In this document: in pieces, positions 1 through 37,987 of the stretch
How positions within the stretch are numbered: position 1 is the stretch's first letter
Layout: every line of letters begins with the position of its first letter
From: an uncultured archaeon
GTDB taxonomy: Archaea > Asgardarchaeota > Heimdallarchaeia > Heimdallarchaeales > Kariarchaeaceae
NCBI GenBank assembly: GCA_964645535.1
Contig: CAZYCQ010000027.1
Span: 1-42,561 of the forward strand
Direction of reading: 5' to 3'
DNA length: 42,561 nt
Program-made: the position numbers and the translations under genes
Notes under the pieces: model-generated
Seen by the model: the letters and a program-made list of their open reading frames with translations, nothing else
Told to the model about the DNA's origin: nothing
Database searches by the model: none

Positions 1-3000
1 AATCACTTTCAAATGTTCTCCAAACAGACGAAGAAAGGTACTTGAGTATACTTATGGGGATCTTTACTTCTTTCACTAAGGAAATCTTATCAGATCTTAA
101 TTCTCCTAACAACTGATCTGGTAGAAGGGGGATAACTAAGGGGTTGGAAAGCATGTGCAAAATGCTCTGGGATCGATAAAGGTCGACAATCTCTGCAAGA
201 AGTCTTCCATCTAGATTCAGGAACAGAGGACTTTCAAGGAATGGCAAAAGAAAATCATTAAGTTTTTTGGGAAGGTGCATTTCTTTTGCACCAATCATTG
301 CCAAATCTTGGACAGTTCTGATATCTTTGACGTCCAACCAATCAAGCCTGAATGGAATGGGAATTGAACAATTGGTCCAAGAATACCATCCAAGATGGAG
401 GATATCTTTCATAGTGGAAGTGTCCAGATCATTTTGCCTGAAAACCAAAATTGCCTCAATGATATTCTCAGCACCTTGTTCTTGGGCAAATTCCATTTCT
501 CCAGGAAATGCCGTCAAATGGATGATATTGCTGAACAGAAAACGCTTCAAATCAGCAATTTCTGGGACTGAGGATTTGACGAATGGAATTACTTGATCTA
601 GAAATTCAATGCCGTTTTCCTTTAGTGATTTAATCAGTTCATTATCGGGTAGAACCTCTATGGGGATTCCTTTTGAGGAAAGGAGGATTCTATATTTTTC
701 TGTGGAAAATGTATCCTTCAATTCACGGAAGAATTTCAACGAGAGACCAGTCTTATCAGAAAGCTCATAGGGGTCTCTTAATATCAATTCCTCAATTGTT
801 GCCAAATTTGCATTCATCAGTGCCCTAAAGCTTGCTGGATCGATATCAAGAAGGGTAATGGGGGTATTGCCGCTTTGACTTAATTCAATGAGGAAACCAG
901 GAGTGTTGAAAGCCTCAAATAGAGGCAGTAGCCAATCATCATGATCGGGAGAATACCGAATCAATATTTCAGCTACTTTTTCGTCTAATATATCTTCATG
1001 TGGTGGAACAATGAAAGGAGCAAAGGCAGATTGTCTTAATTCAAGCATCAACAAAGATGGCAATCTTCTAAGTGCTTGTTTATCTACTTTATCCGGTGAA
1101 TTGATCCAGTTTTCTAGAATGGATCCATCGACAGGTGTTTGTGAGATGGCAGTGGCAGGGATTTTTGCCATTGCAACAAAAGGTCTAAAATCAATGAAAC
1201 GATTAGTCAATCGAGTTACCAAGGTATCAAGTTCAGCATCGTCATCAGACAAATCTTCTTCAGAAACGAATAAAAGATCCGCTAATGTAAGAATACCTTT
1301 TCCATTGAGTAAATCAAGTTCTTCTTCTGTTACAGAAGGAAATTCAGACAATGGCAAATCCAAAACCATTTGTGTATGTTTGATAAGGGTGGCCAAAGCA
1401 GGGTCATTAATGAAAGAATCAGAACTCAATTGATATTTAAGTTCTTGAAGTGTATCGATATCGCTACATTCGAATACACCTGATTTTGTTATTGACCTAA
1501 TCTCAGCTTTTCTGAAAATGTTGATGTCTTTGAGTGGAATACCATTCTCCTGTTCTGCCTCAGCCACTGTTTCACGAGAAATGTTGTCCAATATGAACTT
1601 GATTTCAGGTTTGGAAAGTCCAGTGATTTTAGAGGTTTTATTAATTGGAGTCAGAAGAAGGTTCAATATGCTTTTGATTCCACTTTCATGTAATTTCTTC
1701 GCGTGGAAATATCGAAGGTTGGGAGTAAAGAAAACCGTTTTGTCATATGCTTCGACAAGTGATGAAAACTCAAGAGCGTGCTTTAGATTTTCAAACCGTT
1801 CAGCAGGCAATCTGGTTTTTTGTTCAAGAATTTTGTCGCCAGTCAGCAGAAAGTCAATGATGGTCTGAATTCCACTTTTTGTCAGGGTGCTAATGATCTC
1901 TTCACCAAGTTCCTCTTCGGCAAATTTGACAGGGAGTTGGAGAAGTTGTTTGATTGAGCTTATGGCCTCCCATGGAACAAGATAGGAATCCCAACTCTCC
2001 TCGAATGTGGAGAAATAGAGATCCTCCAACGTAAGAAGATCATTTGCCTTCAGATGGGTGATTTGAATGGGTCTGAAAAGGTTAAGTGATTCCAAGTCAA
2101 TTCCAACTTCCTGAAGAATTACAGTAGTCTGTCTGGTCTTAGTCTGTTCAATCGGCCAGCCAAGGATTTCTGAAAGTTCTTCTGCCGGAGTGGTCAGAAA
2201 GTCAAAAACACGGGTAAGTTTTGCTTTGGATAGTTTCTTTAATTCATCTGCTTCCAAGGTTATGTATTTGAATTGTTTAATCTGTTCTTTTTCGTCAGCC
2301 TCAGGATTCTTTTCTGGGAGTGGAATTTCCTCTTTCCATGATAGAAGGACAGCAGGGGAACGAAGAAGAGATTTCATTTGGGAGATAACAGGCCATGTTA
2401 GTCCATAAACCTCAAACGTTTTGACCTCTGTCAGATAGTAGAGTTTCTCAATCGTATCATATCCAGATTCAATCAAAGATTGGATTTCATTGGAAGTGAA
2501 GTGAGGTACATTATCTACCTCAAATTCAAAGACACCCCTATACTTCCCTTTGGACACCTCAACTGCGATTGGTGTTCCTCGGAGTTTCAGGGAAGATTTT
2601 TCAATTTTGTCTTGTATCCGTTTCTTGGACTTTCCAAGGATATTGGCGATTCGAGTTGTCGGAGACAAAAACAATTGGTATATTCTTTTAATGCCATGCT
2701 TGCCTAATGTATCAATTTCAGAGCTTGAAAATTCACTTAGATGGACAAGTGAAAGATCGAGCTTTCGTTTTGCATTGAATACCTGAGCAACTCTGAAATA
2801 CAGGTTTTCAGGGTTTACCTCCTTTTCATCAGGATGATCAATCAGATAGAGAAAGAGATTTACAGCCTCAGAGGCTTTTTTCCCAGTCACCATTGAGGAG
2901 ATTTTGGATTTGGGGGAAGTAAGTAGCTGAAGGAAATTCCTAACACCTTTTGCCTGAAGCTTCTTCAATCCTTGCTGGAAAACCTTCTCAAGCTTTTCAT

Positions 3001-6000
3001 CCTTGAAAAATCCCGTAATTTCGGGTAGAGGACTGAAAAGGGCGGAATTTATGAGGTTATGTTTCACGATTTTTTTGCCTGCCATTGAATCAGGCAGTCT
3101 ATCCTTCCAGAGAATGGAAACAAGTTGACCGACGGTAAGAATGTTGAAAAACTTTGTAGCTTCTATTTCTGAAGAATTAAGAAATGTAATTGTTTCAATT
3201 GCAGGATCCTGTGCTTTGGCTTTTTTGATCTGTTTGAGATTAAACCCTTCTTGGAGTAATTCAAGCCATTCTTCAGACAGACCGGTTATCCTTGATATTT
3301 CATCTTTTGGCCAGATCAAGAACTTTCCAATTGTATTTATTCCTGCATCAATGAGAAAATTCATTGAGGGAATCAATTCATCAGACAGGAGATGAACAGA
3401 TTCAGCCAACAGCATGAAAAGTTCGGCCAACAGTGATTTATCTGTTTCACTTTCGATTCTTTGGTAGACACGATCAAAGTTGTAATAAAACTCTTCCAAA
3501 GTAAAAATTCCGACCTTATTGAGGATTTTAGCATTTCTTTTTCCAATCAAGTCAAGTTTATAGCCGTATTTCTTTTTCAGATTTTGCAGATCTTCTTTGT
3601 ATTCATTTTCATCAATCGGCGTTGCCAAGAATTCAAAAAGTTCTTCCAAATGGTTTTCGTTTATGTAATCTTCCAGTCCAGGCTCGATCACCTTGATTTC
3701 ATCTAAGGGGCTTACTTCATTGATTTGCATCAAACTATCGATGACACGATTCTTACTGTCTTCGAACAATAATATTCTCAGTTCATCGATTTTTTTGTGC
3801 TTGCTCATTTTGTGCGAATTGAGGTTTGCCAATTCTTCAAGAGTTTCAATTCCCAATTTTTGGAGGAGGGGAATAAATTTGGCACTTGTTTCAGATGCCA
3901 TAGTGTAGGGATCCAAAGGTGTCGAATAACCCATTAAAGTTTCCATGAGGTGTGTAAAAAGGAACCGTTGCAGTTCCCTGATTTCATTGACCACTTCAGA
4001 AGGCGTAGATAAGAGATCCTTGACTGTCTGCAATTTTCTTCGTTTGAATGCATTCCTCGTGTACCCATCAAAAAAAGGTTGGGGATTGTCAATACGTACT
4101 TCAAGGACAGAGGGGGTTTCATTTCCAATGTTATTCAATTTTTCCAGATATGTCTGGATAAGATCTGGACCAATGTTTTCTGAATTGATTGGGTTTGATG
4201 GGTGTGTTGTTTCTATTAGAAATTCGATATGGTTGGCAACCTTTCTTTTGCGAATTTCTGGGAATTTCAATAATTGGTCAAGGTCTGGGAGGAGATTTTT
4301 GGGATCAAGCAATCTTTGAAGGTCAATCTCTTCTTTATTTAGATCAATTTCAGATTTTGCTGTTGAAGGATCAAGAAATTCTTGAAGGGAAACTTTGTCT
4401 TCTTCGCTTAATTCATCCTCACCGACCATGGTTTCTTCAGCTAGTGATTGGGCAGAACTGAAATCAAGAGATTCAAGATCTGAGATCAAGGTTTCATTTG
4501 TTGAAAGTCTTTCATTGTATTGCTGGATTTCGTAAAGAAGAACAAGTTTTAACTCTTCAATTAATTTCGGTAATAGTCCTTGAACCTTATCCAATAAATA
4601 TGGTGGAGTTACAAGATAGTCCCAAGATGTTTGAATCCATCTTCTAGGAAGTGCTTTGGAAAGATGGGGCAGTTGAACTTCAGCATCACGTGAATGGAAT
4701 CTTCTTTCAATTTCCGGTGGAACAAGCAAATCAATTGGAAGGGAAGGAATATTTCCATAGGTTCCATGGATCAAGATTGTTTTTCGTTTGTAATAGTCAA
4801 TTCGTTCTGCTTTAATCCTCAATAATTTTGCAAGCCGTGCATTTTCGGTTCTGAGGAATTCTTCCGTTGTAAATATATTGTTTGATTGAAGTTTCAGTTT
4901 CCATTTTTCAGGAATCCAAATAGGTTCGATGAAAATTGATCTTCCCTTTGGAAGGTCAAATCTTCCAATTCGTGGCTCCCCTGACGAAAGTGCTGCAATA
5001 AGCCGTTCAGGTTTGAGTCCCACATCAGGATCCCACCGATTTGCTCGCTTCAGAATTTCGAGTAAATTATTCGCAGTCTGAGGAGCATATCGTTCAAAAC
5101 GTGATCGTCTCTGTCTTTCACGTTGTTTTCGTCTAGAACGGTTAAGGAATGATTTTAACTTTCGACCGAGTTGCAACAATGCCAATTTTATTTCTTCTGC
5201 AATCTCATCCACTTTGTCAATGTATTCTTTTGATGTTTCCGGGAAGGGAATTTTGGTCGATACGAGGGAGACCGCGATTGCCAAAGGATCAGATTGGCGT
5301 GTCAGACCATATTCATTCCACTTAATCGAATCTATGACATGTTTAATCACATCATTTCCTGCACCGAAAATCAAGGGAATACGGTTGGCATATCTATAGA
5401 TTACCTTGTTGTCGATAATTGTTGCCCCTTTTGATGCGGTTGCCTTATTGACCCCTCCACCATAGCCTATTGCAGCCTCAATAATAAAAGGATGTCCTTC
5501 ATAAGCTTTTGGCGGTCTGGTGACTGCTTCAACGAAAATCGGTTCTAATTCTTTCTCAATACCTTTACGCAATCTGTCTGCGCCCAATGGAGAAAGAGCA
5601 TCCCCTTTGGGCTCATCAAATTTGAAAATCCTATCTCTTTTTCTTTTTACTTCTTTTGCCTCACGGAAAGCTCTTTGAAATCCATCATGAACAATCCGCC
5701 TAATATCCTTTTCAGTCAGCTCCGAAGGTTTTTTTGTTGGATCAACACCTACTTCCTCAAAAAATGATTGTGCGGCTTGAAGACTTACGCCCATGAAGTT
5801 TTTTGAAAGAAACTCAACGACTGTGTCATTTGGGTCAGCCTGTGCAATCTCTCTTCGGAATGTGGTAATGTCGGTTCCCCAAGGGTGAACAGGGACAACC
5901 TCAGGAGGTTTAGGCAGATCATCAACGACCCTTTTGAAAATCAGTTCGTCTTCAGTTCCTGGTTCATCGCCAGGAAGGAAAATATGCATGTCTGCATAAG

Positions 6001-6742
6001 GGGTAATAATTGCCAATTGTTTGAAGTATTCTCTCACGTAATTCTTTGCTTGACCCCAGTTTCCAGTAAATGAGACCGTAACTTCTGTTCCGAAATCTTC
6101 GAAATAATCGGGGTCTTCTGGATGAATCACTTCATCAGAGATGATTATTGGCTTGTTTTGTTCCAAATTAATCTTCAACTTCACTCGATATGTGACATCA
6201 GATCCAATAGGTCTTGTAGTAATTTGGATGGGGAGATCCAGAGTAGACATTGAGTAAAGAAGAACCATCTTTGAACCGAGACCAAAACGTCCACGGGTTT
6301 GTTGAGCGCCATATTTTGTACCTGCAAGTACGGTTCCGAACAATTGCGGAATCAATTCGCGGGGAACACCGACACCATTGTCACGACATGTAAGTTGAAG
6401 GAAGTCCAATTTCTTGTTGCCCAAACGCGTTGAATCCATATCCATGAGATTGGAGACTTCTTCAACGGTCATTCGTCTGAGTCTCAGGAATATATTAGGG
6501 GTTACATTGCGTTTTTCTGCGGCATCTAACGCGTTTTCCACAAGTTCACGAATTGATGTAAAGACAGCCCTCAAAGGATTCCCAAAACCGGCTATGCTTT
6601 TGTTGTCATTGAAGAAGACAGCTGCACTTGCTGAACGAGCCTTTGAATCTGATCTTTTAATTTTCTTTGAGGGTGTTTGCTTAGTGACAATTTTTTCTTT
6701 TGAGATGGTCTTAGGTTTCTTTGGTGTCTGCTCGGTAGCCAA
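1..6742 (-). CDS. top6B: Giant DNA topoisomerase VI subunit B fused to a long array of HhH-like repeats (3' end lies outside the window; at least 2247 aa)
   Basis: Hand-translated from TTG at 6742 (AGGGG upstream). GHKL motifs: FFNDNKSIAGFGNPLRAVFTSIRELVENALDA, CRDNGVGVP, LAGTKYGAQQTRGRFGLGSK. Transducer motifs: RPPKAYEGHPFIIEAAI, RYANRIPLIFG, KWNEYGL, STKIPFPETSKEYI. No in-frame stop found by hand from about 5290 down to base 1. Its absence from the ORF track is consistent with no stop inside the window. Confidence 0.95.
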   Translation of the reverse strand, partial: MATEQTPKKPKTISKEKIVTKQTPSKKIKRSDSKARSASAAVFFNDNKSIAGFGNPLRAVFTSIRELVENALDAAEKRNVTPNIFLRLRRMTVEEVSNLMDMDSTRLGNKKLDFLQLTCRDNGVGVPRELIPQLFGTVLAGTKYGAQQTRGRFGLGSKMVLLYSMSTLDLPIQITTRPIGSDVTYRVKLKINLEQNKPIIISDEVIHPEDPDYFEDFGTEVTVSFTGNWGQAKNYVREYFKQLAIITPYADMHIFLPGDEPGTEDELIFKRVVDDLPKPPEVVPVHPWGTDITTFRREIAQADPNDTVVEFLSKNFMGVSLQAAQSFFEEVGVDPTKKPSELTEKDIRRIVHDGFQRAFREAKEVKRKRDRIFKFDEPKGDALSPLGADRLRKGIEKELEPIFVEAVTRPPKAYEGHPFIIEAAIGYGGGVNKATASKGATIIDNKVIYRYANRIPLIFGAGNDVIKHVIDSIKWNEYGLTRQSDPLAIAVSLVSTKIPFPETSKEYIDKVDEIAEEIKLALLQLGRKLKSFLNRSRRKQRERQRRSRFERYAPQTANNLLEILKRANRWDPDVGLKPERLIAALSSGEPRIGRFDLPKGRSIFIEPIWIPEKWKLKLQSNNIFTTEEFLRTENARLAKLLRIKAERIDYYKRKTILIHGTYGNIPSLPIDLLVPPEIERRFHSRDAEVQLPHLSKALPRRWIQTSWDYLVTPPYLLDKVQGLLPKLIEELKLVLLYEIQQYNERLSTNETLISDLESLDFSSAQSLAEETMVGEDELSEEDKVSLQEFLDPSTAKSEIDLNKEEIDLQRLLDPKNLLPDLDQLLKFPEIRKRKVANHIEFLIETTHPSNPINSENIGPDLIQTYLEKLNNIGNETPSVLEVRIDNPQPFFDGYTRNAFKRRKLQTVKDLLSTPSEVVNEIRELQRFLFTHLMETLMGYSTPLDPYTMASETSAKFIPLLQKLGIETLEELANLNSHKMSKHKKIDELRILLFEDSKNRVIDSLMQINEVSPLDEIKVIEPGLEDYINENHLEELFEFLATPIDENEYKEDLQNLKKKYGYKLDLIGKRNAKILNKVGIFTLEEFYYNFDRVYQRIESETDKSLLAELFMLLAESVHLLSDELIPSMNFLIDAGINTIGKFLIWPKDEISRITGLSEEWLELLQEGFNLKQIKKAKAQDPAIETITFLNSSEIEATKFFNILTVGQLVSILWKDRLPDSMAGKKIVKHNLINSALFSPLPEITGFFKDEKLEKVFQQGLKKLQAKGVRNFLQLLTSPKSKISSMVTGKKASEAVNLFLYLIDHPDEKEVNPENLYFRVAQVFNAKRKLDLSLVHLSEFSSSEIDTLGKHGIKRIYQLFLSPTTRIANILGKSKKRIQDKIEKSSLKLRGTPIAVEVSKGKYRGVFEFEVDNVPHFTSNEIQSLIESGYDTIEKLYYLTEVKTFEVYGLTWPVISQMKSLLRSPAVLLSWKEEIPLPEKNPEADEKEQIKQFKYITLEADELKKLSKAKLTRVFDFLTTPAEELSEILGWPIEQTKTRQTTVILQEVGIDLESLNLFRPIQITHLKANDLLTLEDLYFSTFEESWDSYLVPWEAISSIKQLLQLPVKFAEEELGEEIISTLTKSGIQTIIDFLLTGDKILEQKTRLPAERFENLKHALEFSSLVEAYDKTVFFTPNLRYFHAKKLHESGIKSILNLLLTPINKTSKITGLSKPEIKFILDNISRETVAEAEQENGIPLKDINIFRKAEIRSITKSGVFECSDIDTLQELKYQLSSDSFINDPALATLIKHTQMVLDLPLSEFPSVTEEELDLLNGKGILTLADLLFVSEEDLSDDDAELDTLVTRLTNRFIDFRPFVAMAKIPATAISQTPVDGSILENWINSPDKVDKQALRRLPSLLMLELRQSAFAPFIVPPHEDILDEKVAEILIRYSPDHDDWLLPLFEAFNTPGFLIELSQSGNTPITLLDIDPASFRALMNANLATIEELILRDPYELSDKTGLSLKFFRELKDTFSTEKYRILLSSKGIPIEVLPDNELIKSLKENGIEFLDQVIPFVKSSVPEIADLKRFLFSNIIHLTAFPGEMEFAQEQGAENIIEAILVFRQNDLDTSTMKDILHLGWYSWTNCSIPIPFRLDWLDVKDIRTVQDLAMIGAKEMHLPKKLNDFLLPFLESPLFLNLDGRLLAEIVDLYRSQSILHMLSNPLVIPLLPDQLLGELRSDKISLVKEVKIPISILKYLSSSVWRTFESD

Positions 6743-6764
6743 TTTCTTAACCCCTATTCTTGCA

Positions 6765-6827
6765 ATGTGCAAGCATTATTTCAGCTCATAATTTGGCGAT
6801 GACATTAGAGTTATCGCCAATGCACAT
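6765..6827 (-). promoter_or_regulatory. Nested inverted repeats in the top6B upstream region (structured leader or operator)
   Basis: ATGTGCA(6765-71)/TGCACAT(6821-27) encloses TTGGCGATGAC-N6-GTTATCGCCAA (6793-6820) and ATTAT-N8-ATAAT (6775-92). A TATA-like TTTAATTA lies on the minus strand at 6849-6856. Confidence 0.4.
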
Positions 6828-6960: not shown

Positions 6961-8532
6961 TCAGAAAAAATTTGTTTCAAGAAACAACTTAATTCCTCCT
7001 TCATTCCGAGAAAGAAGAGATTTTTTAAGCATATTGGCAAAATTCATTCTTTTGGCTTCTTCATTTTCGATTATCAAGGTAAGCGTTGATCCAAGTTCCA
7101 TTCGAATTCTACTTTCAGTTTTCAACCATTCGAGTATTGAGAAATCTTCATCAGGGGAGTAGGTAGGATTAGATTGGCAAATGAAGTGCCTAAAAGTGGA
7201 CAATCTCTTTGTCGAGGAATTTGACAGTTCTTCCATGAATTTGGCGGAATCAAAATTTCCTAAGGAAATAAAGTCCAACATGGAAGTTATCCTCAAGGTT
7301 TCTTTAATGACACGTCCTTTCAATCCAATTTTCTTTAGATCGTCACCGTTCAATGGTTTAGGAAGAATCATGTAGCCTTGTTTGAACTTTTCCAGTTCTG
7401 CTTGAAGTTGGGTATATGATGAATTGTCAAGTTCGCCCATCAGAGACAATGTTTTTTTGGTTTCTTCAAGGAGCGGGAGGGCAAAATTCTTTTGTCTCAT
7501 GGAGAAGTAATATGCTGGTTTGAAAATCCATCGTCGAATTTCCCCATTACTTGTTTGTTGATCAGATAGATGAAAAGCCCCATCCAGAAGAATAAGTTTG
7601 ACTGCAATTCTCAAACATTGCCATTTTCCCATACCAGGGTATCGTTTGAGGAAAAATTTGCTTATTTTATCGATATTCTTTTCCGAGAAATTTTCATCGA
7701 TTTTGAGATGATTGAACAGGCCCCTCAAATAAATCAAGGCAAAAGTGGTTTCAATATCGAGCATATTAAGAATTGAATGGTATTTCTTTTCGAGCGATTT
7801 ACACCAATCGCTGGATTCAGGAAAAAGGACATCGGAAAGACCGGTTTGGTTCAGATACTTGATCCCAATGGAAGGACGGGCTTCAAAGGTTTTCTTCAGT
7901 TCAACGTAAATTCGTTCAAGAGAGACATTATGTTTTTTCAATAACGAAGCGGAATGCTTAATTGCATTGAGCGTTTGGTTTTCTATTTCAAAATTTAACT
8001 TGGATGCGAATCTTATGGCCCGTATGATTCTTAGGGAATCTTCTTCGAAACGTTCTTGAGGAACCCCTACTGCTCTAATGGTTTTGTTTTTTAAATCCTC
8101 CAACCCATTAAAGGGGTCATGGACATTTCCATCGGAATCAGCAGCCATTGCATTGATTGTAAAGTCTCTTCTTGCCAAATCCGCCTTAAGATCAGAGACA
8201 AATTCAACATTGTCAGGTCTTCTTCCATCAGAATATGATCCTTCAACTCGGAAGGTAGTTATATCGATCTTCACTCCCTTGAAATAAACACCCACAGTCC
8301 CATGCCTAATTCCGGCATAAAATTGCTTGTATCCTTTGAATATTTTTTTGATTTCATCAGGTCGTGCGTTCGTTGCGATATCTATATCAAAGTCCTTCAG
8401 GTTCAATTCAAAATTATAGAGTTCTGCAAGTAGAAGATCCCTGACTGTTCCACCGACTATAAACGCGGTAAAACCGGCATCTTCGATCAATCGCATAGCT
8501 TCTTTCGCTCTGGATGGAACATGGACCTTCAT
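6961..8532 (-). CDS. cca: CCA tRNA nucleotidyltransferase, class II (bacterial/eukaryotic type)
   Basis: GGTVRDLLL, DIDIAT, ITTFRVEGSYSDGRRPD loop, DLARRDFTINAMA, EDSLRIIRAIRFA templating motif. Confidence 0.9.
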   Translation of the reverse strand: MKVHVPSRAKEAMRLIEDAGFTAFIVGGTVRDLLLAELYNFELNLKDFDIDIATNARPDEIKKIFKGYKQFYAGIRHGTVGVYFKGVKIDITTFRVEGSYSDGRRPDNVEFVSDLKADLARRDFTINAMAADSDGNVHDPFNGLEDLKNKTIRAVGVPQERFEEDSLRIIRAIRFASKLNFEIENQTLNAIKHSASLLKKHNVSLERIYVELKKTFEARPSIGIKYLNQTGLSDVLFPESSDWCKSLEKKYHSILNMLDIETTFALIYLRGLFNHLKIDENFSEKNIDKISKFFLKRYPGMGKWQCLRIAVKLILLDGAFHLSDQQTSNGEIRRWIFKPAYYFSMRQKNFALPLLEETKKTLSLMGELDNSSYTQLQAELEKFKQGYMILPKPLNGDDLKKIGLKGRVIKETLRITSMLDFISLGNFDSAKFMEELSNSSTKRLSTFRHFICQSNPTYSPDEDFSILEWLKTESRIRMELGSTLTLIIENEEAKRMNFANMLKKSLLSRNEGGIKLFLETNFF

Positions 8533-10782: not shown

Positions 10783-13395
10783 TTAGGATTTGGAAAAGCG
10801 AAAGTCACCGTGAATAGGGGACGCAATAAATGTTTCAACTCCTTCAAAATTGAAATCTAGCTCTGTTGACATGGTCCCGAATTTTTGCAATGCATCTATT
10901 GCACCAATTCTATGGAGGGGTTGATTGTTATTTCCGCACTGATATGAGTAAGTGCATCTTGGACATCCATCAATCCTCCCACATGGACAATCATTCAAAA
11001 TTTTCAAGGTTCGGGAAATCCCTTTCTCCATTCGCTCAAAAAGAAGCTTTGAGAGACCTGAACCTCCCGGCGAACCATCATACACGAAAACGAGCCCAGT
11101 ATCTCCCATTGACAATCCACCTATCTGATTTGCACCGCCTCCTGTCAACGAATTACCGGATTCAATTAAAACATGTTCGATTGCGTGGAAAGTCCCACCT
11201 AGAACATCCTGAATTTTTTCCTCAGAAGTCTGTTCCAACACGTTTTCAGGTTTAGGGAATTGGATGGCAAATCCTTTCGTTTTGAATTTATATTGCAGAG
11301 GTTTTTCTAAACTATATTTTCCGATAATTCGGTCAGTGAAAATGTTTGAACGATAATATCCCGTTACAGTCTCAGTCAATTCCAATGTAAGGTAAGCAGC
11401 AGAAAGCCCGTCAATGTCTACCTCCTTGTCTATTTCAACAACAGTTGGCCACATTGTTCTTTCTGCTTGGGTTTTTTCTCCTCGTTTGTCAGTCTCACGA
11501 ATTCTGGCTACTTTTTTCTTGCCATCAAAGCCTATAACTTCATACGTTTTTCCTCCGTGAAGGTAGATGGCACCGGGATGGAGTTCTGAAAGAGCCATGG
11601 GCAGGGATCTTTGCCCCACCTTTTTGTTGCCGTTATAAATGTCAATTGCGGCCCCAATACCTCTGATTGAGAAATTCTGCAATAATTGGGAAACCTTGTA
11701 TTTATCTTTGACCCGGATTCTTCCGTTTCTCTTCACTAGAATTCCTCTTTTCAGAAGAGGTTCTGCAAAAGCAGAATACTTGTCAGCCTCCGCTTCAGTT
11801 AGAGGCAGTTCAAAAGCCATTGCGAGAATTTGCATGGTTCCGACCAGATCATTGTTTGGTTCAACAAATACAGGATCGATTTCAGTAAGGTATTCATTTG
11901 GATTTCGTGCATAATAGGCAGAGATTGGGTCATCTCCACGGAAAACAAGTGCAGAAATACTTTCATCTCCACGTCTTCCAGCTCTGCCGACACGTTGGAT
12001 GAAATTAGTCAATCCTGTCAGCATCGTGACTACAGCATCCAAATCACCTATATCAATTCCCAACTCCAATGTCGGGGTTGAGACAAGGGCTTCAAGTTTT
12101 CCAGTACGAAATGCTTTCTCCACAGATGACCGGTGGGAGTATTCAAGCCCTGCCCTATGAACCTCAGAATTGATTGAACTGTTTTTGAGAATCAGATTTA
12201 AGGCTTCAGCAGTCAAATGGCTATTTGCAAAGGCCAAAGTCTTTTTCCTTTCACGGACGAGATAGCTTATGATTCTAGCCATGGTTGATAGGTTTGACGA
12301 TTCCTTCGGATAGACCATGGTTAAATGCATAGGTGATTTCCGTGCGGTTTTAATTCCAATATGGATGACTTCTCGTTCGAACATCGTTTCCGCGAATCCT
12401 TTGGCATTTGAAACAGTTGCACTTGCTCCGATCAACTGCATTTTTGGTGCAAACCGTTTGAGCCGTCGTATCAGCCAGAGAACATTTGAACCATAGGAAC
12501 CAACACAAAGATGGATTTCATCAATGACCAAGAATTTCAGATTTCGAACCATTCCCTGAAATGAAAAATTGGATCGGAGGTGGTAATGTATCATATCTGG
12601 ATTAGTGATAAGGATATCGGGAGGATTCTGGTAAATTGAATCTCGTTCCGTTTTTGAGGTATCCCCATCAAACTTTTTGACAGAGACCCCAATGGTTGAA
12701 GCGTATTCTATTATCTTAAAGAGTTGATCCTTTGCAAGTGCCTTGGTTGGGTATATGAAAATGGCTTGAGGACCTTTTCGATCAAAAGGATTTGGATTTT
12801 CGGAGACAATTCTTTCGATTATTGGAAGGAGAAAGGATTCAGTTTTTCCCATTCCGGTTGGTGCAGTGATGATGACAGAGTGACCTGATGAAATTGCATA
12901 ATATGCCTGTTGTTGATATTCATAAAGGTTAGAGATTCCTTTGTTTTTCAGGACGTTATGAAGTCCATTAAAGAGAATGACATCCTCAACTGGATCCCCT
13001 TCTTTTGGAGGATTTGGTTTAAGATAATCGTAATTGACGAGATAATAGGATCGATCAGAAGCAATTTTTTTGACAACTTCAGGGATATTCTGAGGTAATT
13101 TTTGGATTGCCCTTATGGCATTTTGCTCGATTTTTGGGTCAACCCTTAGTTTCTTTCCCTTTTTGATCCAACCTTCATCAAGGGATCTCTTGGTTTTGAA
13201 ACCATGACGAGTTGCGGGAGAAGCATGGGTTCTCCGCATTTTTTTCTGCAAAAGATGGAATGTTTCTTCAGCAGAAAATCCAGGCTTTCCCTTGTGGGAA
13301 AAGCCACATTCTTCGCAAAAGAAGGTAACGATTCCCTTTCGTTTACTATGATCTAGATTTCCAGAACAGTAGGGGCATTCAAATGTTGAAACCAT
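10783..13395 (-). CDS. SF2 DEAH-box helicase, MrfA/Hrq1/SftH family, with N-terminal Zn ribbon and C-terminal DUF1998-type Zn site
   Basis: APTGMGKT, YPTKALAKDQ, DEIH, SAT, LELGIDIG, QRVGRAGR. C-terminal CPCGRIDGCPRC; N-terminal CPYC..CEEC. Confidence 0.9.
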   Translation of the reverse strand: MVSTFECPYCSGNLDHSKRKGIVTFFCEECGFSHKGKPGFSAEETFHLLQKKMRRTHASPATRHGFKTKRSLDEGWIKKGKKLRVDPKIEQNAIRAIQKLPQNIPEVVKKIASDRSYYLVNYDYLKPNPPKEGDPVEDVILFNGLHNVLKNKGISNLYEYQQQAYYAISSGHSVIITAPTGMGKTESFLLPIIERIVSENPNPFDRKGPQAIFIYPTKALAKDQLFKIIEYASTIGVSVKKFDGDTSKTERDSIYQNPPDILITNPDMIHYHLRSNFSFQGMVRNLKFLVIDEIHLCVGSYGSNVLWLIRRLKRFAPKMQLIGASATVSNAKGFAETMFEREVIHIGIKTARKSPMHLTMVYPKESSNLSTMARIISYLVRERKKTLAFANSHLTAEALNLILKNSSINSEVHRAGLEYSHRSSVEKAFRTGKLEALVSTPTLELGIDIGDLDAVVTMLTGLTNFIQRVGRAGRRGDESISALVFRGDDPISAYYARNPNEYLTEIDPVFVEPNNDLVGTMQILAMAFELPLTEAEADKYSAFAEPLLKRGILVKRNGRIRVKDKYKVSQLLQNFSIRGIGAAIDIYNGNKKVGQRSLPMALSELHPGAIYLHGGKTYEVIGFDGKKKVARIRETDKRGEKTQAERTMWPTVVEIDKEVDIDGLSAAYLTLELTETVTGYYRSNIFTDRIIGKYSLEKPLQYKFKTKGFAIQFPKPENVLEQTSEEKIQDVLGGTFHAIEHVLIESGNSLTGGGANQIGGLSMGDTGLVFVYDGSPGGSGLSKLLFERMEKGISRTLKILNDCPCGRIDGCPRCTYSYQCGNNNQPLHRIGAIDALQKFGTMSTELDFNFEGVETFIASPIHGDFRFSKS

Positions 13396-33273: not shown

Positions 33274-35850
33274 TTAATCGTGCTCTTCTGTTTCATCATC
33301 TATTTCTTCGTCTACATCATCAGTTATTTCAACATCAGAATCATCAACTTCTGCTTCTTCTACCTCTTCAATTTCTGAATCATCGACAATTAGGGAGGCA
33401 AAAACCAATTTCTCCTTTTGGGTCAATCTCATTACTCTTACCCCCTGAGTATTTCTTCCCATAATACGAATGGTATTGACATTAACCTTGATGATTTTTC
33501 CAGAACTGCTGATTAGAGAAATTGGGATAACTCCTTCAACATCAGGGACATAAAGAGAAGCAGTTACATATCCGTTTTTGTTTGTAATCTTGATGTTTTT
33601 TACTCCTTTTGCCCCTCTTTTGGTGATTCTGTATTTAGAAAGATATGTTCTTTTGCCATAACCCTTTTCTGTTAGAGTTAGGACTGTTGCCGTTTCAAAT
33701 TTATCTTTGGGGACAGCAAAGGAAGAAATCACCTCATCACCCGGTTCCTTGATGGAAACACCTATTACACCTTGAGCCACTCTTCCCGTCAATCGTGCCA
33801 ATTTTTCTTCAAACACACAGGCATGGCCGAACTTAGTGGCCATGAAGATGTAGGAATCGCCATCAGTAATGAAGGCATCCGCGACGGAATCATCTTCTTC
33901 TTTGAAAAGGAGACATTTTATACCGTTCTTACGGATATTCCTGAATTTGTCCAATGTGGTTCTTTTGATAATACCATGTTTGGTTACCGTCACCAATACT
34001 TTCTCATTGGTAAACTCGTCTTCTTTTATAGGAACAATCTTCTTTACACGGGAGGAAACTGGGAGATAGGTATTCAATTTTCGTCCCTTTTGGGTTCTTT
34101 TACTTACTTCGATCACTTCAAAAGCAGGGATCTTGTGAACAATTCCTTCTTCGGTAATCAAGAGGAGATCATCCTTATTGCTGGCAATAGTGAAATCAAG
34201 TAGTTGTTCATTTTCATTTAAGGGGACTCCGATCACACCAACACCAGCCCTACCCTGCACTTTGAATTTCTCGAAATCAATAGATCGGAGATAGCCTTCA
34301 CTGGTTGAAGTTATCAAAAGTTTCCTTTCATGGAGCAATTCCCTATCGTTAGTGAGGTCAATCTCATCGTGTTCGAGGATGGTTGTCCGTCTGGAATCAT
34401 TGTAAGTTTGTTTAATCTGAAGAAGTTCTTCCTTGATCACCTCAAGTCTACGAGTTCTGTTATTGATGATTTCTTGGAGGAACAAAGCTCTTTCTGTTCT
34501 AGCTTCCGCTTCTTTCTGTAAGTCATCCTGTTCAACCCTTGCCAAACGTGCAAGAGTCATATCCAAAACTGCCTTGGCCTGTTTATCTGAGAGATCGAAA
34601 GAGTTCATCAGATTTTGTTGTGCCTCTGAACGGTTTTCAGATGCCCGTATCATGGCTATGATTTCATCAATATGCTGGGATGCCTTTATCAGACCTTCAA
34701 GGATATGCAGACGAGCCATTACCTTCTCTAATTCTTCTTCTGATCTTTTCAGAACGACATCTTCTCTGAAATCCAGAAAAATTGAAAGAGCCTGCTTTAG
34801 ATTCAGGGTTCTGGGTCTTCCATAGACAAAGGCAAGGATACGACCATGGAACATTGTTTCTAGATTGGTCCTCTTGAAAAGTTGGGCTTGAACAGTCCTT
34901 AAAGATTCATCATCACTATATCCTTCTTCCACAACAATCTCGATACGTATCTTATCTTTCGATAAATCCCGGACATTGGTAATTCCCCTGATTTTTCCAG
35001 AGTTGATGAGTTCGGCAATCTCTTCAATCAATGAAGTCTTATTAACGAAATAGGGAATTTCATCAACCACAAGCATAGGTTCCTTAACTTTGTGCGTGTC
35101 TGGTCTCTCAACGTGGATACGGGATCGTAATCTGATGCTCCCTTTTCCAGTCCTATAGAGATTCTCAATACCCTTTGTCCCAACGATCAGGCCACCTGTT
35201 GGGAAGTCAGGACCTTTGACATAAGTCATTAATTCATCAATGGTAATCATTGGGTTGTCAATGATAGCCACAGCCCCATCAATCAATTCACCAAGCTGAT
35301 GGGGAGGGATATTTGATGACATTCCCACAGCGATTCCTTTTGCCCCATTTAGCAAGAGATGTGGAACACGAACAGGAAGAACCGTTGGTTCTCTTTCCTC
35401 GCCATCAAAATTATCCACAAATTTGACAACCTTTGGAGATAGATCAGCCAACAATTCCTGGGAAATCTTTTCAAGTCGAGCTTCAGTATACCTCATGGCA
35501 GCTGGTGGAAAACCGTCAATGCTTCCAAAGTTACCCTGCCCTTCAACCAGTGGATAACGTAATGACCAATCTTGAGCCAATCTTACCAAACTTTCGTATG
35601 TTCCTCCTGCATGAGGATGATATTTGCCAGTTACTTCCCCAACAATTCTTGCACATTTCTTGAAGCTTGAGCGATGGGTCAGGCCTAAGCCGTACATTGC
35701 ATAGATTATTCTTCTATGGACAGGTTTCAGTCCGTCTCTTGCATCGGGAAGCGCCCGATCAGAGATAACATATCTAGAATATTCTCCAAAACCATGTTTG
35801 AGTTCATTGGTTAATGTGCTTTCTCTAATAAAATCTTCAGCCGTTGTCAT
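33274..35850 (-). CDS. gyrA: DNA gyrase subunit A
   Basis: [31 protein letters not shown] active site, GPDFPTGG, GyrA-box-like QGRAGVG, C-terminal pinwheel repeats, acidic tail. Confidence 0.96.
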
Positions 35851-35866
35851 CTATCAAATCCCATCC

Positions 35867-37987
35867 TTAAAATTGAGGTTCATGAGTCCAATCCTCTAGC
35901 TGAGAGATCAAATCAGCTGCGAGGATCGCTTGATCAGTTTCCAAGTCCTCTTCCACCTCATCAAGATCCAAATCACCATTTTTTTCTTCTTCAAATGCAA
36001 GAGTATAGAATTCACCAAATCTATGCTCTTCTTCTTCAGAGAACACTTCTTCATTGATGAATTTCTTTCTTCCCGCGATATCATCCCCCATCAACTTGGT
36101 AATCCACCTTTCAGTTTTAGCACTGTCTGCGATGATCACTCGTTCAATACGCCGCGTCATTGGGTTCATTACAGTTTCTTCCAATTGATCCGCATTCATT
36201 TCACCAAGACCCTTGAAGCGAGAGACCACAATGTCCTTTGTTGAAAGGTTCATATCATTGAGGGCAATCTTGAGAGCTTCCAAATCCCTGTCGGAAGTCA
36301 AATACACATAGGGTTTTCCAGATAGTTTAATGGATTTGGGAGAGAATTGGACTTTATAGAGAGGAGGTCTTGCCATATAGACATACCCTTCTTCTATGAG
36401 TGGTCGCATATGTCGATAAAACAGAGTAAGGAGTAATGTTGCTATATGAAGTCCATCAACATCGGCATCTGTCAGAATTACGATTTTTCCGTATCTTAGT
36501 TTAGAGATGTCAAAATCATCATCAATTCCTGTTCCCACTGCGGTAATGATGTTTCTGATTTCCGCATTATCCAGGATTTTGCTTAAACGTGCCTTTTCAA
36601 CATTGAGTACCTTTCCTCGAAGGAACAGAATTTCTTGGTTCTGGGCATCACGTGCCTTTACAGCCGTACCACCGGCAGATTGACCCTCAACGAGGAACAG
36701 TTCTCTTTTCATAGGGTCTTTTTCTCGGGATGCGTAAAGTTTTCCAGGGAGAGAAACACGGCTGGAGCCTGATTTCCGGATCAATTCCCTAGCTTTCTGT
36801 GCTGCAAGTCTGGCTCTACGAGAGAGAACTGCCTTTTGGATGATCGTTTTTGCATAGGTAGGATAGGTTTGGAGAAATTCCTTGAACTGCTTGCCAAAAA
36901 TTCCTTGAACGATACCGTCTACTTCACCATTTCCGAGTTTTGTTTTTGTTTGCCCTTCAAATTGGGGCTCGGGAACCTTGACGGAAATAATTGCCACCAA
37001 TCCTTCCCTGGTATCATCACCTCTGAGATTTTCCTCTTTGTCCTTCAATAGCTTATTCGTACGTGCAAAATCGTTTAAAGTACGTGTCAATGCAGTTTTG
37101 AATCCTGAAACATGTGTACCCCCCTCTCTGGTGTCGATATTATTGACAAACCCTTTAATCAATTCTTGAAAGGAATCCGTATAAGCCAAAGCTATATCTA
37201 CCTTGACTCCTTGTGCCTCACCTGTTGCTCGGAAAACTGGAGCATCCGGATCAAGTTTCTTCCGATTTTGGATGGTATCTTGGACAAATTGAACTATCCC
37301 TCCCTCAAAGTGGTAAACAACTTTCTTGGGTTCAGGTTTTCCGTCCTCTGTCTCCACAATTTGGCGTTCATCAATAAATTCAATGGTAAAACCTTCCGTC
37401 AGGTAAGCCAATTCCTTGAAACGACCGGCAAGAATATCGAAGTTGAACTCAGTTGTATTGAAAATCTCTGGATCGGGTTTGAAACGAATGAGAGTACCTC
37501 TTTTATCCTCCGGTTTTCGTTCCCGCGTTTGTACATCATACAGTTTTTTACCTCGGCTATATTCTTGCCAATAAACTTTTTTCTCACGAACAACTTCCAC
37601 ATAGAACTCTATGCTGAGCGCGCAAACTACGGATAAACCGACACCATGGAGTCCTCCGGAAACGGAATAGGCCTTTTTTCCGAATTTTCCGCCAGAATGG
37701 AGTTTGGTCAATATGACCTCCAATGTGGAGACACCATATTTCGGATGGATATCTGAAGGAATGCCTGCCCCATCATCCCTAATGGAGACTGAGCCATCCT
37801 GATGCAAGATTACCCGAGCCATGCTGCATCTTCCTGCCATGGCCTCATCCACACTATTATCAATTACCTCATAAACCAAGTGATGGAGACCTCGTGATCC
37901 GACGTCACCGATATACATTGAGGGTCGATGTCGAACCCCTTCCGTACCTTCCAATACTTGAATATCCGATTCATTATATTCTTCCAT
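35867..37987 (-). CDS. gyrB: DNA gyrase subunit B
   Basis: VRHRPSMYIG, EVIDNSVDE, LHSGGKF, SGGLHGVG, FEGQTK, TDADVDG, RFKGLGEM. Confidence 0.96.
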   Translation of the reverse strand: MEEYNESDIQVLEGTEGVRHRPSMYIGDVGSRGLHHLVYEVIDNSVDEAMAGRCSMARVILHQDGSVSIRDDGAGIPSDIHPKYGVSTLEVILTKLHSGGKFGKKAYSVSGGLHGVGLSVVCALSIEFYVEVVREKKVYWQEYSRGKKLYDVQTRERKPEDKRGTLIRFKPDPEIFNTTEFNFDILAGRFKELAYLTEGFTIEFIDERQIVETEDGKPEPKKVVYHFEGGIVQFVQDTIQNRKKLDPDAPVFRATGEAQGVKVDIALAYTDSFQELIKGFVNNIDTREGGTHVSGFKTALTRTLNDFARTNKLLKDKEENLRGDDTREGLVAIISVKVPEPQFEGQTKTKLGNGEVDGIVQGIFGKQFKEFLQTYPTYAKTIIQKAVLSRRARLAAQKARELIRKSGSSRVSLPGKLYASREKDPMKRELFLVEGQSAGGTAVKARDAQNQEILFLRGKVLNVEKARLSKILDNAEIRNIITAVGTGIDDDFDISKLRYGKIVILTDADVDGLHIATLLLTLFYRHMRPLIEEGYVYMARPPLYKVQFSPKSIKLSGKPYVYLTSDRDLEALKIALNDMNLSTKDIVVSRFKGLGEMNADQLEETVMNPMTRRIERVIIADSAKTERWITKLMGDDIAGRKKFINEEVFSEEEEHRFGEFYTLAFEEEKNGDLDLDEVEEDLETDQAILAADLISQLEDWTHEPQF

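Follow-up and report, generated by a model that had tools for sequence, protein, structure and literature searches.

The window, the whole stretch of 42,561 nucleotides that was analysed, is the beginning of contig C27 from a Heimdall-group Asgard archaeon, and its left edge lies within a gene for the B subunit of topoisomerase VI (Topo VI). In our analysis of open reading frames, the top6B frame starts with a TTG at 6772 and comprises 2,257 codons; an alternative TTG at 6742, preceded by a GGGG run, gives the 2,247 codons described in an earlier note on this DNA. At 39% G+C, stops make up about 6.5% of random codons, which gives a stop-free run of 2,257 codons a chance of roughly 1e-65. The features discussed below are as follows, in window coordinates unless another contig is named.

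2..6772, minus strand: 5′ part of the giant top6B, codons 1-2257, an open frame running off the left window edge
L003:3-3881 on contig C110: remainder of top6B, 3,505 codons in total
1..135, no strand: end-to-end overlap of C27 and C110, 133/135 identical and in frame, marking an assembly break within top6B
6593..6772, minus strand: basic N-terminal extension, aa 1-60, net +12
5036..6643, minus strand: canonical Top6B core (GHKL ATPase, H2TH, transducer), aa 44-579
6176..6556, minus strand: GHKL ATPase, aa 73-199 (Pfam HATPase_c), with E/N, DNGVG and QTRGRFGLG boxes
5108..5611, minus strand: transducer, aa 388-555 (Pfam Topo-VIb_trans, E 1e-53)
5036..5215, minus strand: long, basic, C-terminal stalk helix, aa 520-579, net +11, from which the arm begins
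2..5035, minus strand: window portion of the arm of (HhH)2 modules, aa 580-2257, with a further 1,248 residues on C110
4754..4927, minus strand: first arm module, aa 616-673, matching the RAD51D/RAD51C N-terminal domain (NTD)
4331..4468, minus strand: acidic linker, aa 769-814, pLDDT <50, part of a block whose acidity is shared by the orthologues
1193..2785, minus strand: dense block of eight modules and two small beta inserts, aa 1330-1860
1751..1945, minus strand: best-matching single module, aa 1610-1674
33274-35850, minus strand: gyrA
35867-37987, minus strand: gyrB

The long frame leaving the window on the left had been noted before, and the leftward extension proposed at that time located both its stop codon and top6A. 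On contig C110 the frame continues for another 1,292 codons, 1,248 of them beyond the window part, and ends with a stop at L003:3881; top6A, with a product of 470 aa, starts 12 nt past this stop. In an alignment spanning 3,488 residues, the joined Top6B (3,505 residues) is collinear with a 3,501-aa protein encoded on a contig of 631 kb. The genome, which is 89% complete, contains one Top6B and one Top6A, and the protein described here is therefore the B subunit of the sole Topo VI found in it.

Enzyme core and arm

The catalytic part of Top6B is intact, as the earlier note held. In addition to its Pfam domains, aa 44-579 align end to end with residues 6-491 of Saccharolobus shibatae Top6B (2zbk_B, E 2.8e-94), the ATP-binding motifs are intact, and the transducer keeps the switch lysine, with WNEY at the WKxY motif. 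The stalk contains seven conserved Arg columns in the orthologue alignment, and in M. mazei Topo VI the stalk binds, or helps to hold, the G-segment (PMC5922973).

The core is followed by an arm of about 2,925 residues, for which the previous figure of more than 1600 was an underestimate. The arm consists of roughly 30-45 diverged, degenerate modules of the five-helix (HhH)2 fold, of the RAD51-NTD or RNAP alpha-CTD type, with helices that connect them, a few acidic linkers and two small beta inserts in between. With a module HMM, 18 modules passed a domain E-value of <0.01, and a lenient setting raised the number to 29. We looked for a DNA-level tandem repeat in the arm and found none, the modules being strongly diverged, so that the tandem HhH-like repeats reported earlier are real as protein modules but not as repeated DNA.

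AlphaFold and Foldseek runs on fragments, also suggested earlier, gave confident, continuous segments of (HhH)2-type modules, with a pLDDT of 84 and pTM of 0.69 for aa 520-1135 and a pLDDT of 86 and pTM of 0.72 for aa 1330-1860. These pTM values, for two segments, suggest that the arm may be mostly stiff. The two blocks are homologous to each other (hhalign probability 99.4, E 5e-22). The first module, aa 616-673, matches the RAD51D/RAD51C NTD with Z 6.2-6.7 and an rmsd of 2.7-2.8 Å over 57-58 residues, and aa 1610-1674 match the RAD51C NTD with Z 8.4 and an rmsd of 1.7 Å over 61 residues, with Pfam RAD51D_N at E 8e-9. More generally, modules match the NTDs of RAD51C/D, RAD51, Dmc1 and RadA, the alpha-CTD, the AF1548 C-domain and the Hel308/PolQ HhH domain (Z 7-8.6, rmsd 1.7-2.4 Å, 56-61 residues), although Z-scores of this size are common among small helical domains and a fold match alone does not imply a shared function.

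In sequence and charge the arm departs from canonical HhH arrays. Canonical G-hydrophobic-G (GhG) hairpins are absent from the 2,925-aa tail, whereas they occur at 8.3 per 1,000 aa in a short-tailed relative and at 21.8 in a net basic, canonical HhH protein encoded by the same genome. The hairpin-1 glycine is retained in 19 of 29 modules and the hairpin-2 glycine in 9 of 29. The tail has a net charge of -57 to -60 and a pI of 5.5, its acidic blocks are conserved in all orthologues, and aa 1330-1860 contain 5 conserved K/R columns. The last 45 aa of Top6B form a Lys/Ser/Thr-rich basic tip of net +16, and a K/S/T-rich end is present in 15/15 of the Kari/Heimdall-type orthologues inspected. Because the Hodarchaeales-type forms of 2,300 aa lack this tip, it cannot be a universal functional end.

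Lineage distribution and accompanying topoisomerases

The reading in the earlier note depended on fused homologues in related genomes, and these proved plentiful, including on contigs 0.47-3.1 Mb long and in closed genomes. The giant Top6B is a lineage-wide design, with orthologues of 2,300-4,300 residues, closed genomes included, stop-free frames of 2,300-4,300 codons in more than 50 genomes, and 79 protein clusters of 1,241-3,950 aa. Two genomes of the same genus have frames of 3,473 and 3,496 aa, one of them on a 473-kb contig, and a closed genome of a sister family has one of 4,185 aa; in all three, a top6A of about 470 aa follows directly. In the family codes of our genome search, open frames span 3,473-3,587 aa in f1, the window's own family, 4,140-4,305 aa in its sister family f2, and 2,312-2,346 aa in f5. 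The Top6A partners of giant B subunits share an additional domain of about 88 aa at the N-terminus, which is missing from the partners of short B subunits.

The giant Top6B, arm included, is under purifying selection, with pN/pS against genome G026 of 0.07/0.77 for the core, 0.26/0.80 for the proximal arm and 0.39/0.77 for the distal arm. Within the family the arm is collinear along its whole length, and with the 2,300-aa forms over aa 35-1840. In a tree of the cores, HhH-tailed Top6B proteins form one split (100/100), in which a form of 1,123 aa branches first, then those of about 2,300 and then those of 3,500-4,300, indicating a single origin and stepwise growth. The early-branching 1,123-aa relative has canonical modules above Pfam cut-offs (HHH_5 E 4.5e-27, IMS_HHH_1, RAD51D_N), and the arm therefore descends from true HhH domains.

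The giant Topo VI accompanies a second type II topoisomerase, an association based on three related lineages and hence on dependent events. Gyrase is encoded in 52/56 genomes of families f1-f5. The HhH tail is also present in families f6 and f19, in which gyrase is absent or rare (0/5 and 1/5 genomes, respectively) and which both encode a second Topo VI, of the canonical kind. In other Asgard families with gyrase (f13, f26 and f28), Top6B has about 1,000-1,350 aa and lacks these modules.

Possible roles of the arm

Our tentative preference, to which we give slightly less than even confidence as a whole, is for a working Topo VI B subunit whose arm is a tether or scaffold with a DNA- or partner-holding tip. 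The Top6B core and adjacent Top6A would form the usual A2B2 strand-passage enzyme, with each B subunit running on from its basic stalk into about 2,900 residues of arm, which would serve as a tether or scaffold, long and for the most part stiff, and not as a DNA wrap. The basic tip, perhaps with a minority of basic modules, may grip DNA, chromatin or a partner, and the rod would set its reach. The Topo VI of M. mazei works slowly and distributively and prefers decatenation (PMC8837201), and an enzyme of this kind would thereby be kept on the chromosome, close to second duplexes, while supercoiling may fall to another type II enzyme, in this genome gyrase.

Because the arm lacks GhG hairpins and is net acidic, a tether or scaffold is favoured over wrapping of the Topo V kind; of the wrapping, tethering or scaffold roles offered in the earlier note, the built-in giant arm stands and wrapping is weakened. 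In f2 the tail carries a small net positive charge (+23 over 3,625 aa), a point against the tether reading. It appears improbable that the majority of modules contact double-stranded DNA irrespective of its sequence and that the two arms wrap or track it, in which case the arm would raise affinity and processivity or sense DNA crossings. Domains of the (HhH)2 fold typically bind dsDNA non-specifically, the arm is rooted in a DNA-binding stalk, and its descent from canonical modules and the frequent retention of the hairpin-1 glycine agree with such binding; because the backbone amides of HhH motifs touch phosphates, weak binding along the arm may occur. However, the absent GhG hairpins, the acidity of the blocks in all orthologues, the few conserved K/R columns and the loss of most hairpin-2 glycines argue against it, and the Topo V chains that appear among weak Foldseek rows do so at probabilities of 0.04-0.07.

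A protein-docking platform, in which modules provide position-specific sites for replisome, segregation, chromatin or cytoskeletal factors and the arm recruits or localises Topo VI or builds a larger machine, is unlikely on balance but has real points in its favour. The nearest structural matches, the alpha-CTD and RAD51-family NTDs, have known protein-protein roles, the arm surface is acidic or neutral, and the extra domain on Top6A hints at an enlarged complex. The modules are also positionally orthologous, each with its own conserved motifs and not interchangeable, but packing between modules explains this equally well, and the conserved neighbours among the loci inspected are top6A alone, plus gyrase in some lineages. 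An artefact, whether misassembly, a Top6B chimera or a decaying pseudogene, is extremely improbable. The gene is split over two contigs of a metagenome-assembled genome whose overlap has two mismatches, but the same fusion in closed one-contig genomes and on long contigs, the intact frames in more than 50 genomes, the collinearity with the 3,501-aa orthologue and a pN well under pS in effect refute this reading.

Comparison with known systems

The core aligns with canonical Top6B from S. shibatae (2ZBK_B, 530 aa) and from M. mazei (2Q2E_B, 621 aa; E 4.2e-67), with which it shares the ATP boxes, switch lysine, basic stalk and adjacent top6A. The giant Top6B is 6-7 times longer, with some 2,900 residues of helical modules after the stalk, and differs in its WNEY motif and the enlarged Top6A. 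Whereas M. mazei Top6B ends in an Ig-like domain, the AF2 model of aa 520-1135 contains no beta-sandwich.

To our knowledge, Topo V is the sole other topoisomerase with a long C-terminal (HhH)2 train. The HhH region of Topo V is basic and binds DNA. As here, the Methanopyrus kandleri enzyme (PDB 2CSB, 8DF7) joins a topoisomerase domain to tandem (HhH)2 domains, but it is of type IC rather than type IIB, the catalytic classes being unrelated, and the arm described here is about 3-4 times the length of the entire Topo V, lacks GhG hairpins and is net acidic. For RAD51/RadA/Dmc1, the RAD51-paralogue NTDs and the RNAP alpha-CTD, the match of a single module spans the whole small domain, and Pfam RAD51D_N and RNA_pol_A_CTD match arm modules by sequence. 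Those are single domains on a recombinase or polymerase, whereas tens of copies are chained and packed together here.

The C-terminus of eukaryotic TOPOVIBL binds REC114, and plant Topo VI has accessory proteins (PMC9671922, PMC9665070). By analogy, the giant Top6B, a type IIB B subunit, may likewise use its C-terminal part for a non-catalytic role, although the C-terminal regions of TOPOVIBL are short and nothing here suggests meiosis-like break targeting. NCBI labels these proteins 'DNA topoisomerase VI subunit B', and our literature search found no paper describing a giant Top6B with an HhH arm. The earlier view that the architecture is undescribed holds to that extent, but Villain et al. 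2022 had noted that in Asgard archaea with gyrase Top6B carries C-terminal extensions particular to individual lineages, describing a 'globular domain' without giving the size seen here or the HhH array (PMC9348778). The same paper cites the 'sequestration' idea of Corbett et al. 2007 and proposes that Topo VI specialised after the arrival of gyrase, which the co-occurrence of giant Top6B and gyrase fits (PMC9348778). Together, the core, the arm and the homologues support the earlier proposal of a type IIB topoisomerase with a built-in giant arm in an Asgard archaeon.

The giant top6B gene, its catalytic core and its Top6A partner

The earlier note described one long Top6B frame with an HhH-like tail that ran past the edge of the window, and our analysis extends this frame to a complete gene of 3,505 residues with its stop codon and a following top6A. 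Within the window the frame spans positions 2 to 6772 of the minus strand and comprises 2,257 codons, stop-free to the left edge; by simple arithmetic, a run of this length has a chance of about 1e-65 at 39% G+C, where about 6.5% of random codons are stops. The candidate starts are a TTG at 6772 and a TTG at 6742, the latter preceded by a GGGG run and chosen in the earlier note. Contig C27, whose first 42.6 kb make up the window, belongs to a 3.6-Mb genome that is 89% complete and divided into 176 contigs. Another contig of this genome, C110, overlaps window positions 1-135 end to end (133/135 bases identical, in frame), and its plus strand (locus L003) extends the frame by 1,292 codons to a stop at L003:3881. 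The stop and the top6A gene that the earlier note expected to its left are thus both on C110. Of the 3,505 residues of the joined protein, 3,488 are collinear with a 3,501-aa protein encoded on a 631-kb contig, and the genome holds a single match to the Top6B transducer and a single match to TP6A_N. The proposed joint between C27 and C110 inside top6B rests on the overlap and on the orthologues. DNA-level tandem repeats of note were not found in top6B. The genes considered here are as follows.

Window 2-6772, minus: giant top6B, continued on contig C110
L003:3893-5305, plus (contig C110): top6A, 470 aa; TP6A_N E 3.7e-20, TOP6A-Spo11_Toprim E 1.3e-58
Window 6961-8532, minus: 523-aa protein directly upstream of top6B, with a PolyA_pol head domain (E 1e-34) and its RNA-binding domain
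Window 10783-13395, minus: 870-aa DEAD/Helicase_C protein with a C-terminal MrfA-type Zn-binding domain (MZB)
Window 33274-35850, minus: gyrA
Window 35867-37987, minus: gyrB

The upstream 523-aa protein is predicted to be a CCA-adding enzyme of class II type or a member of the poly(A) polymerase family, and such a protein is to our knowledge unusual in archaea; a PolyA_pol-type neighbour of top6B is also present in the same-genus genome G045.

The first part of the giant protein carries the features of a Top6B catalytic core. In Pfam, HATPase_c covers aa 73-199, and aa 388-555 match the Topo VI-B transducer (PF09239) over model positions 1-159 of 159 (E 1e-53, 181.8 bits against a cut-off of 24). 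Residues 44-579 align with residues 6-491 of S. shibatae Top6B (2zbk_B) without large gaps (E 2.8e-94), and the core also matches M. mazei Top6B (E 4.2e-67). In the 2zbk_B alignment, the GHKL/Bergerat boxes ELVENALDA (E/N box), DNGVGV and QTRGRFGLG lie opposite the S. shibatae boxes, and by hand count a Lys stands opposite the switch lysine K427. The H2TH domain between GHKL and transducer has no Pfam model and was therefore assessed on the same alignment, which is unbroken through 2zbk_B residues 200-300. The last core helix, or stalk (aa 520-579), has a net charge of +11 and seven Arg columns conserved across 31 orthologues. The WKxY motif reads K-W-N-E-Y in both the giant Top6B and its closest orthologue (P0002), with Asn in place of the Lys after the Trp. 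In M. mazei, G-segment binding requires the stalk/WKxY surface (PMC5922973). Every sequence feature of the Top6B family that we tested is therefore present except for this K-to-N change, and the giant Top6B and its Top6A are predicted to perform ATP-dependent strand passage as an A2B2 enzyme.

The top6A gene starts 12 nt past the top6B stop, and the same order is found in three other genomes; a top6A of about 470 aa directly follows the giant frame both in two genomes of the same genus and in one closed genome of family f2 (f1 to f28 are our codes for the Asgard families searched, f1 being the window's own). Top6A partners of giant Top6B (own genome, f2 and f19) share an extra N-terminal domain of about 88 aa, which is absent from the partners of short Top6B (the canonical f19 copy, f6 and f13). 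A language-model look-up of this N-terminus gave weak ubiquitin-like leads (0.77), on which we claim no fold. Complex prediction of the arm base (aa 575-760) with Top6A aa 1-100 scored 0.00 and is evidence neither way.

Conservation, fold and origin of the arm

Long Top6B proteins, which the earlier note proposed to look for in other Asgard proteomes, proved to be common in related archaea. A length-restricted search returned 79 protein clusters with a Top6B core, 1,241-3,950 aa long, which NCBI names DNA topoisomerase VI subunit B and assigns to Kariarchaeaceae, Heimdallarchaeaceae, Hodarchaeales and 'Heimdallarchaeota'. In a survey of 251 Asgard genomes, the length of the frame that contains the transducer depends on the family.

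Length of the open frame around the Top6B transducer in Asgard families
f1 (the window's own family): 3,473-3,587 aa
f2 (two closed genomes included): 4,140-4,305 aa
f3/f4: up to 4,244 aa
f5: 2,312-2,346 aa
f19: 2,286-2,297 aa
f6: about 1,110-1,123 aa
Majority of remaining families: about 500-680 aa

Within the family, the entire arm, comprising the roughly 2,925 residues after the core, is collinear, and with the 2,300-aa forms collinearity holds for aa 35-1840; its modules are therefore positionally orthologous rather than shuffled. Against one same-genus genome, pN/pS values are 0.07/0.77 for the core, 0.26/0.80 for the proximal arm and 0.39/0.77 for the distal arm, where synonymous sites are saturated against both same-genus genomes, making pN versus pS usable and dN/dS not. 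By this comparison, the arm is evolving more rapidly than the core yet is clearly constrained. A misassembly or a pseudogene was rejected on the stop-free orthologue frames in Asgard genomes, the same-genus and closed-genome copies, and pN versus pS.

Sequence matches and structural models both point to helix-hairpin-helix modules. Weak HhH-type Pfam matches (RAD51D_N, RNA_pol_A_CTD, HHH_5, TfoX_C and DUF4332) are dispersed over aa 970-2021; summed over the whole protein, RAD51D_N (42.4 bits, cut-off 27.3) and RNA_pol_A_CTD (28.6 bits, cut-off 23.8) pass their thresholds, and the other three fall marginally under theirs. The RAD51D_N match at aa 1622-1657 has an E of 8e-9, and PF26169 is listed for many orthologues. 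A module HMM, started from one module and iterated across the long orthologues, settled at a unit of about 48 residues and finds 18 modules at domain E<0.01, or 29 leniently. AlphaFold2 with orthologue alignments modeled aa 1330-1860 (pLDDT 86.3, pTM 0.72) as eight helical modules with two small beta inserts, and aa 520-1135 (pLDDT 84.4, pTM 0.69) as the long stalk helix and about six modules, with long connecting helices and one disordered acidic linker (aa 769-814). Compared with known folds, the modules match over their full length (56-61 residues) with Z of 7-8.6 and rmsd of 1.7-2.4 Å, values of Z that are common among small helical domains and that we rely on only jointly with the Pfam sequence matches. 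The matched structures are the N-terminal domains of RAD51C, RAD51B/D, RAD51, Dmc1 and RadA, together with the RNA polymerase alpha-CTD, the AF1548 C-domain and the Hel308/PolQ HhH domain (Hel308 domain 5), the match to the RAD51C NTD having Z 8.4 and rmsd 1.7 Å over 61 aa. A wide search with VIA on the proximal segment (aa 520-1135) gave Z of 5.3-6.7, with the long stalk helix accounting for the majority of rows. Foldseek with the whole 531-residue model of aa 1330-1860 gave no match at E<=0.001, and it was the domain-wise comparison that was informative. The models thus indicate that the arm modules adopt the five-helix (HhH)2 fold, about 60 residues with two helix-hairpin-helix units. About 30 modules are supported by sequence alone, and about 40-45 would be expected if the whole 2,925-residue tail were as dense as the segment with eight in 531 residues. 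The segments aa 520-1135 and aa 1330-1860 are themselves homologous (profile comparison, probability 99.4, E 5e-22, 14% identity), and therefore the arm grew by ancient duplication of multi-module blocks.

In a maximum-likelihood tree of 25 Asgard Top6B cores, a branch with 100/100 support separates all nine HhH-tailed proteins from the others. With the midpoint root outside this group, the 1,123-aa form branches before the forms of about 2,300 aa, which in turn precede those of 3,500-4,300 aa; the short second Top6B copies of f6 and f19 fall outside the group. The 1,123-aa form has canonical HhH modules above Pfam cut-offs (HHH_5 E 4.5e-27) and six module-HMM matches, and in the giant form of f19, 17 modules are regularly spaced, about 62-65 residues apart. 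The gyrase-bearing families f13, f26 and f28 encode Top6B of about 1,000-1,350 aa without HhH modules. At the loci inspected in these families, which lie outside the Heimdall group (L010, L012 and L014), the transducer starts near aa 610-660, pointing to a large insertion before it, and the C-terminal extension has only a weak Rho_N match and no HhH modules.

Possible roles of the arm

The earlier note took topoisomerase V as the precedent for a long HhH array and proposed a DNA-wrapping, tethering or scaffold arm. The modules are borne out as (HhH)2 domains, and the case for wrapping is weakened. The G-hydrophobic-G (GhG) hairpin occurs 0 times in the 2,925-aa tail, compared with 8.3 per 1,000 aa in a short-tailed relative and 21.8 per 1,000 in a net basic, canonical four-HhH protein of the same genome (contig C49, L015:2792-4096). 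By sequence, the arm lacks the canonical DNA-phosphate-contacting hairpin of (HhH)2 domains. Of 29 modules, 19 retain a single Gly in hairpin 1 and 9 in hairpin 2. The tail has a net charge of -57 to -60 and a pI of 5.5, some of its blocks are acidic throughout all orthologues, and only five K/R columns are conserved in aa 1330-1860. Together, the missing GhG hairpins, loss of glycine, negative charge, acidic blocks and scarcity of K/R columns argue against a polycationic wrap. In contrast, both arm ends are basic, with +11 in the stalk at the root and +16 in the last 45 residues. All 15 Kari/Heimdall-type orthologues inspected share a K/S/T-rich C-terminal end, which Hodarchaeales-type proteins lack. 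A strict PIP box (Qxx[LIVM]xx[FYW][FYW]) occurs nowhere in the giant Top6B, and a looser PIP-like pattern is found neither in its last 150 residues nor in the last 120 residues of 18 orthologues. The C49 protein, 434 aa with four GIG-type HhH repeats, is the only protein of the genome besides Top6B with multiple module-HMM matches.

The topoisomerase complement of these cells bears on what such an arm may do. The complete gyrB-gyrA pair (window 33274-37987, minus) lies 27 kb from top6B on the same strand. The two enzymes are adjacent in an f5 genome (G136), where about 1.4 kb separates the end of gyrA from the Top6B transducer on contig C23. Of the 56 genomes of f1-f5, 52 have the GyrA C-terminal repeat, compared with 0 of 5 in f6 and 1 of 5 in f19, and f6 and f19 have a second, canonical Topo VI. 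The HhH-tailed Topo VI is therefore always accompanied by another type II topoisomerase in the genomes searched, a co-occurrence that represents three related lineages and not independent trials. The f19 genome G041 has its canonical Topo VI 6 kb from the giant one, as two complete operons in tandem on one strand (L013, G041:C6:514500-530500), encoding canonical B of 564 aa and A of 389 aa, and giant B of 2,293 aa and A of 473 aa, with a 972-aa HEAT-repeat protein between them. GyrA open frames of 1,266-1,738 aa occur in several Asgard genomes (e.g. G186:C10, G154:C15, G183:C59, G015:C1), compared with about 812-860 in most, and might contain inteins or fusions.

We infer that the arm may be mostly a stiff rod with a DNA- or chromatin-binding tip, because both of its ends are basic and two segments of 500-600 residues are modeled with a pTM of about 0.7. 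M. mazei Topo VI is a slow, distributive decatenase (PMC8837201), and as a tether or scaffold the arm would keep such an enzyme on the chromosome, with gyrase or the second Topo VI handling the remaining topoisomerase work in those cells. Alternatively, weak DNA binding may be distributed along the arm, or the arm may serve as a protein-docking platform, and either role could be combined with that of a tether. A more far-reaching and rather improbable reading is that, with two arms of about 2,900 residues and the extra Top6A N-terminal domain, Topo VI forms part of the chromosome's own structure, serving as a bridge or axis element that acts over long range to join distant DNA or to anchor the nucleoid to another cell structure. 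If true, an archaeal equivalent of the scaffold function of topoisomerase II in eukaryotes would have arisen in the lineage closest to them.

The giant Top6B among known topoisomerases

Topo VI is the ancestral type II topoisomerase of archaea and the ancestor of the meiotic Spo11/TOPOVIBL machine, and its B subunit has hitherto been regarded as 500-800 residues long. In Heimdallarchaeia, which are usually placed as the archaea nearest to eukaryotes, Top6B is among the largest proteins of the cell, grown stepwise from a short HhH tail and retained for a very long time at a coding cost of 7-13 kb. This implies an unrecognised layer of control or localisation over DNA decatenation. It also offers a concrete, testable case for division of labour between Topo VI and gyrase, and a case from nature in which (HhH)2 domains make up a rod that is very long and apparently ordered. 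The architecture is real, ancient and striking. Consistent with the novelty suggested in the earlier note, a full-text literature search, with subscription journals mostly outside its reach, found no published account of a Top6B of this size or of an HhH array on Topo VI.

Topo V is a type IC enzyme, whereas the catalytic part here is a type IIB Top6B core that pairs with Top6A, and the giant protein is not a relative of Topo V. It also differs from M. mazei Top6B, in which an Ig-like beta-sandwich CTD follows the transducer; DSSP on the AlphaFold2 model of aa 520-1135 assigns helices only, with no strand of at least 3 residues, and the strand-free model argues that such a CTD is absent here. 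Villain et al. (2022) proposed that lineage-specific C-terminal extensions of Top6B were acquired following the arrival of gyrase (PMC9348778), and the giant Top6B fits this proposal while far exceeding what they describe.
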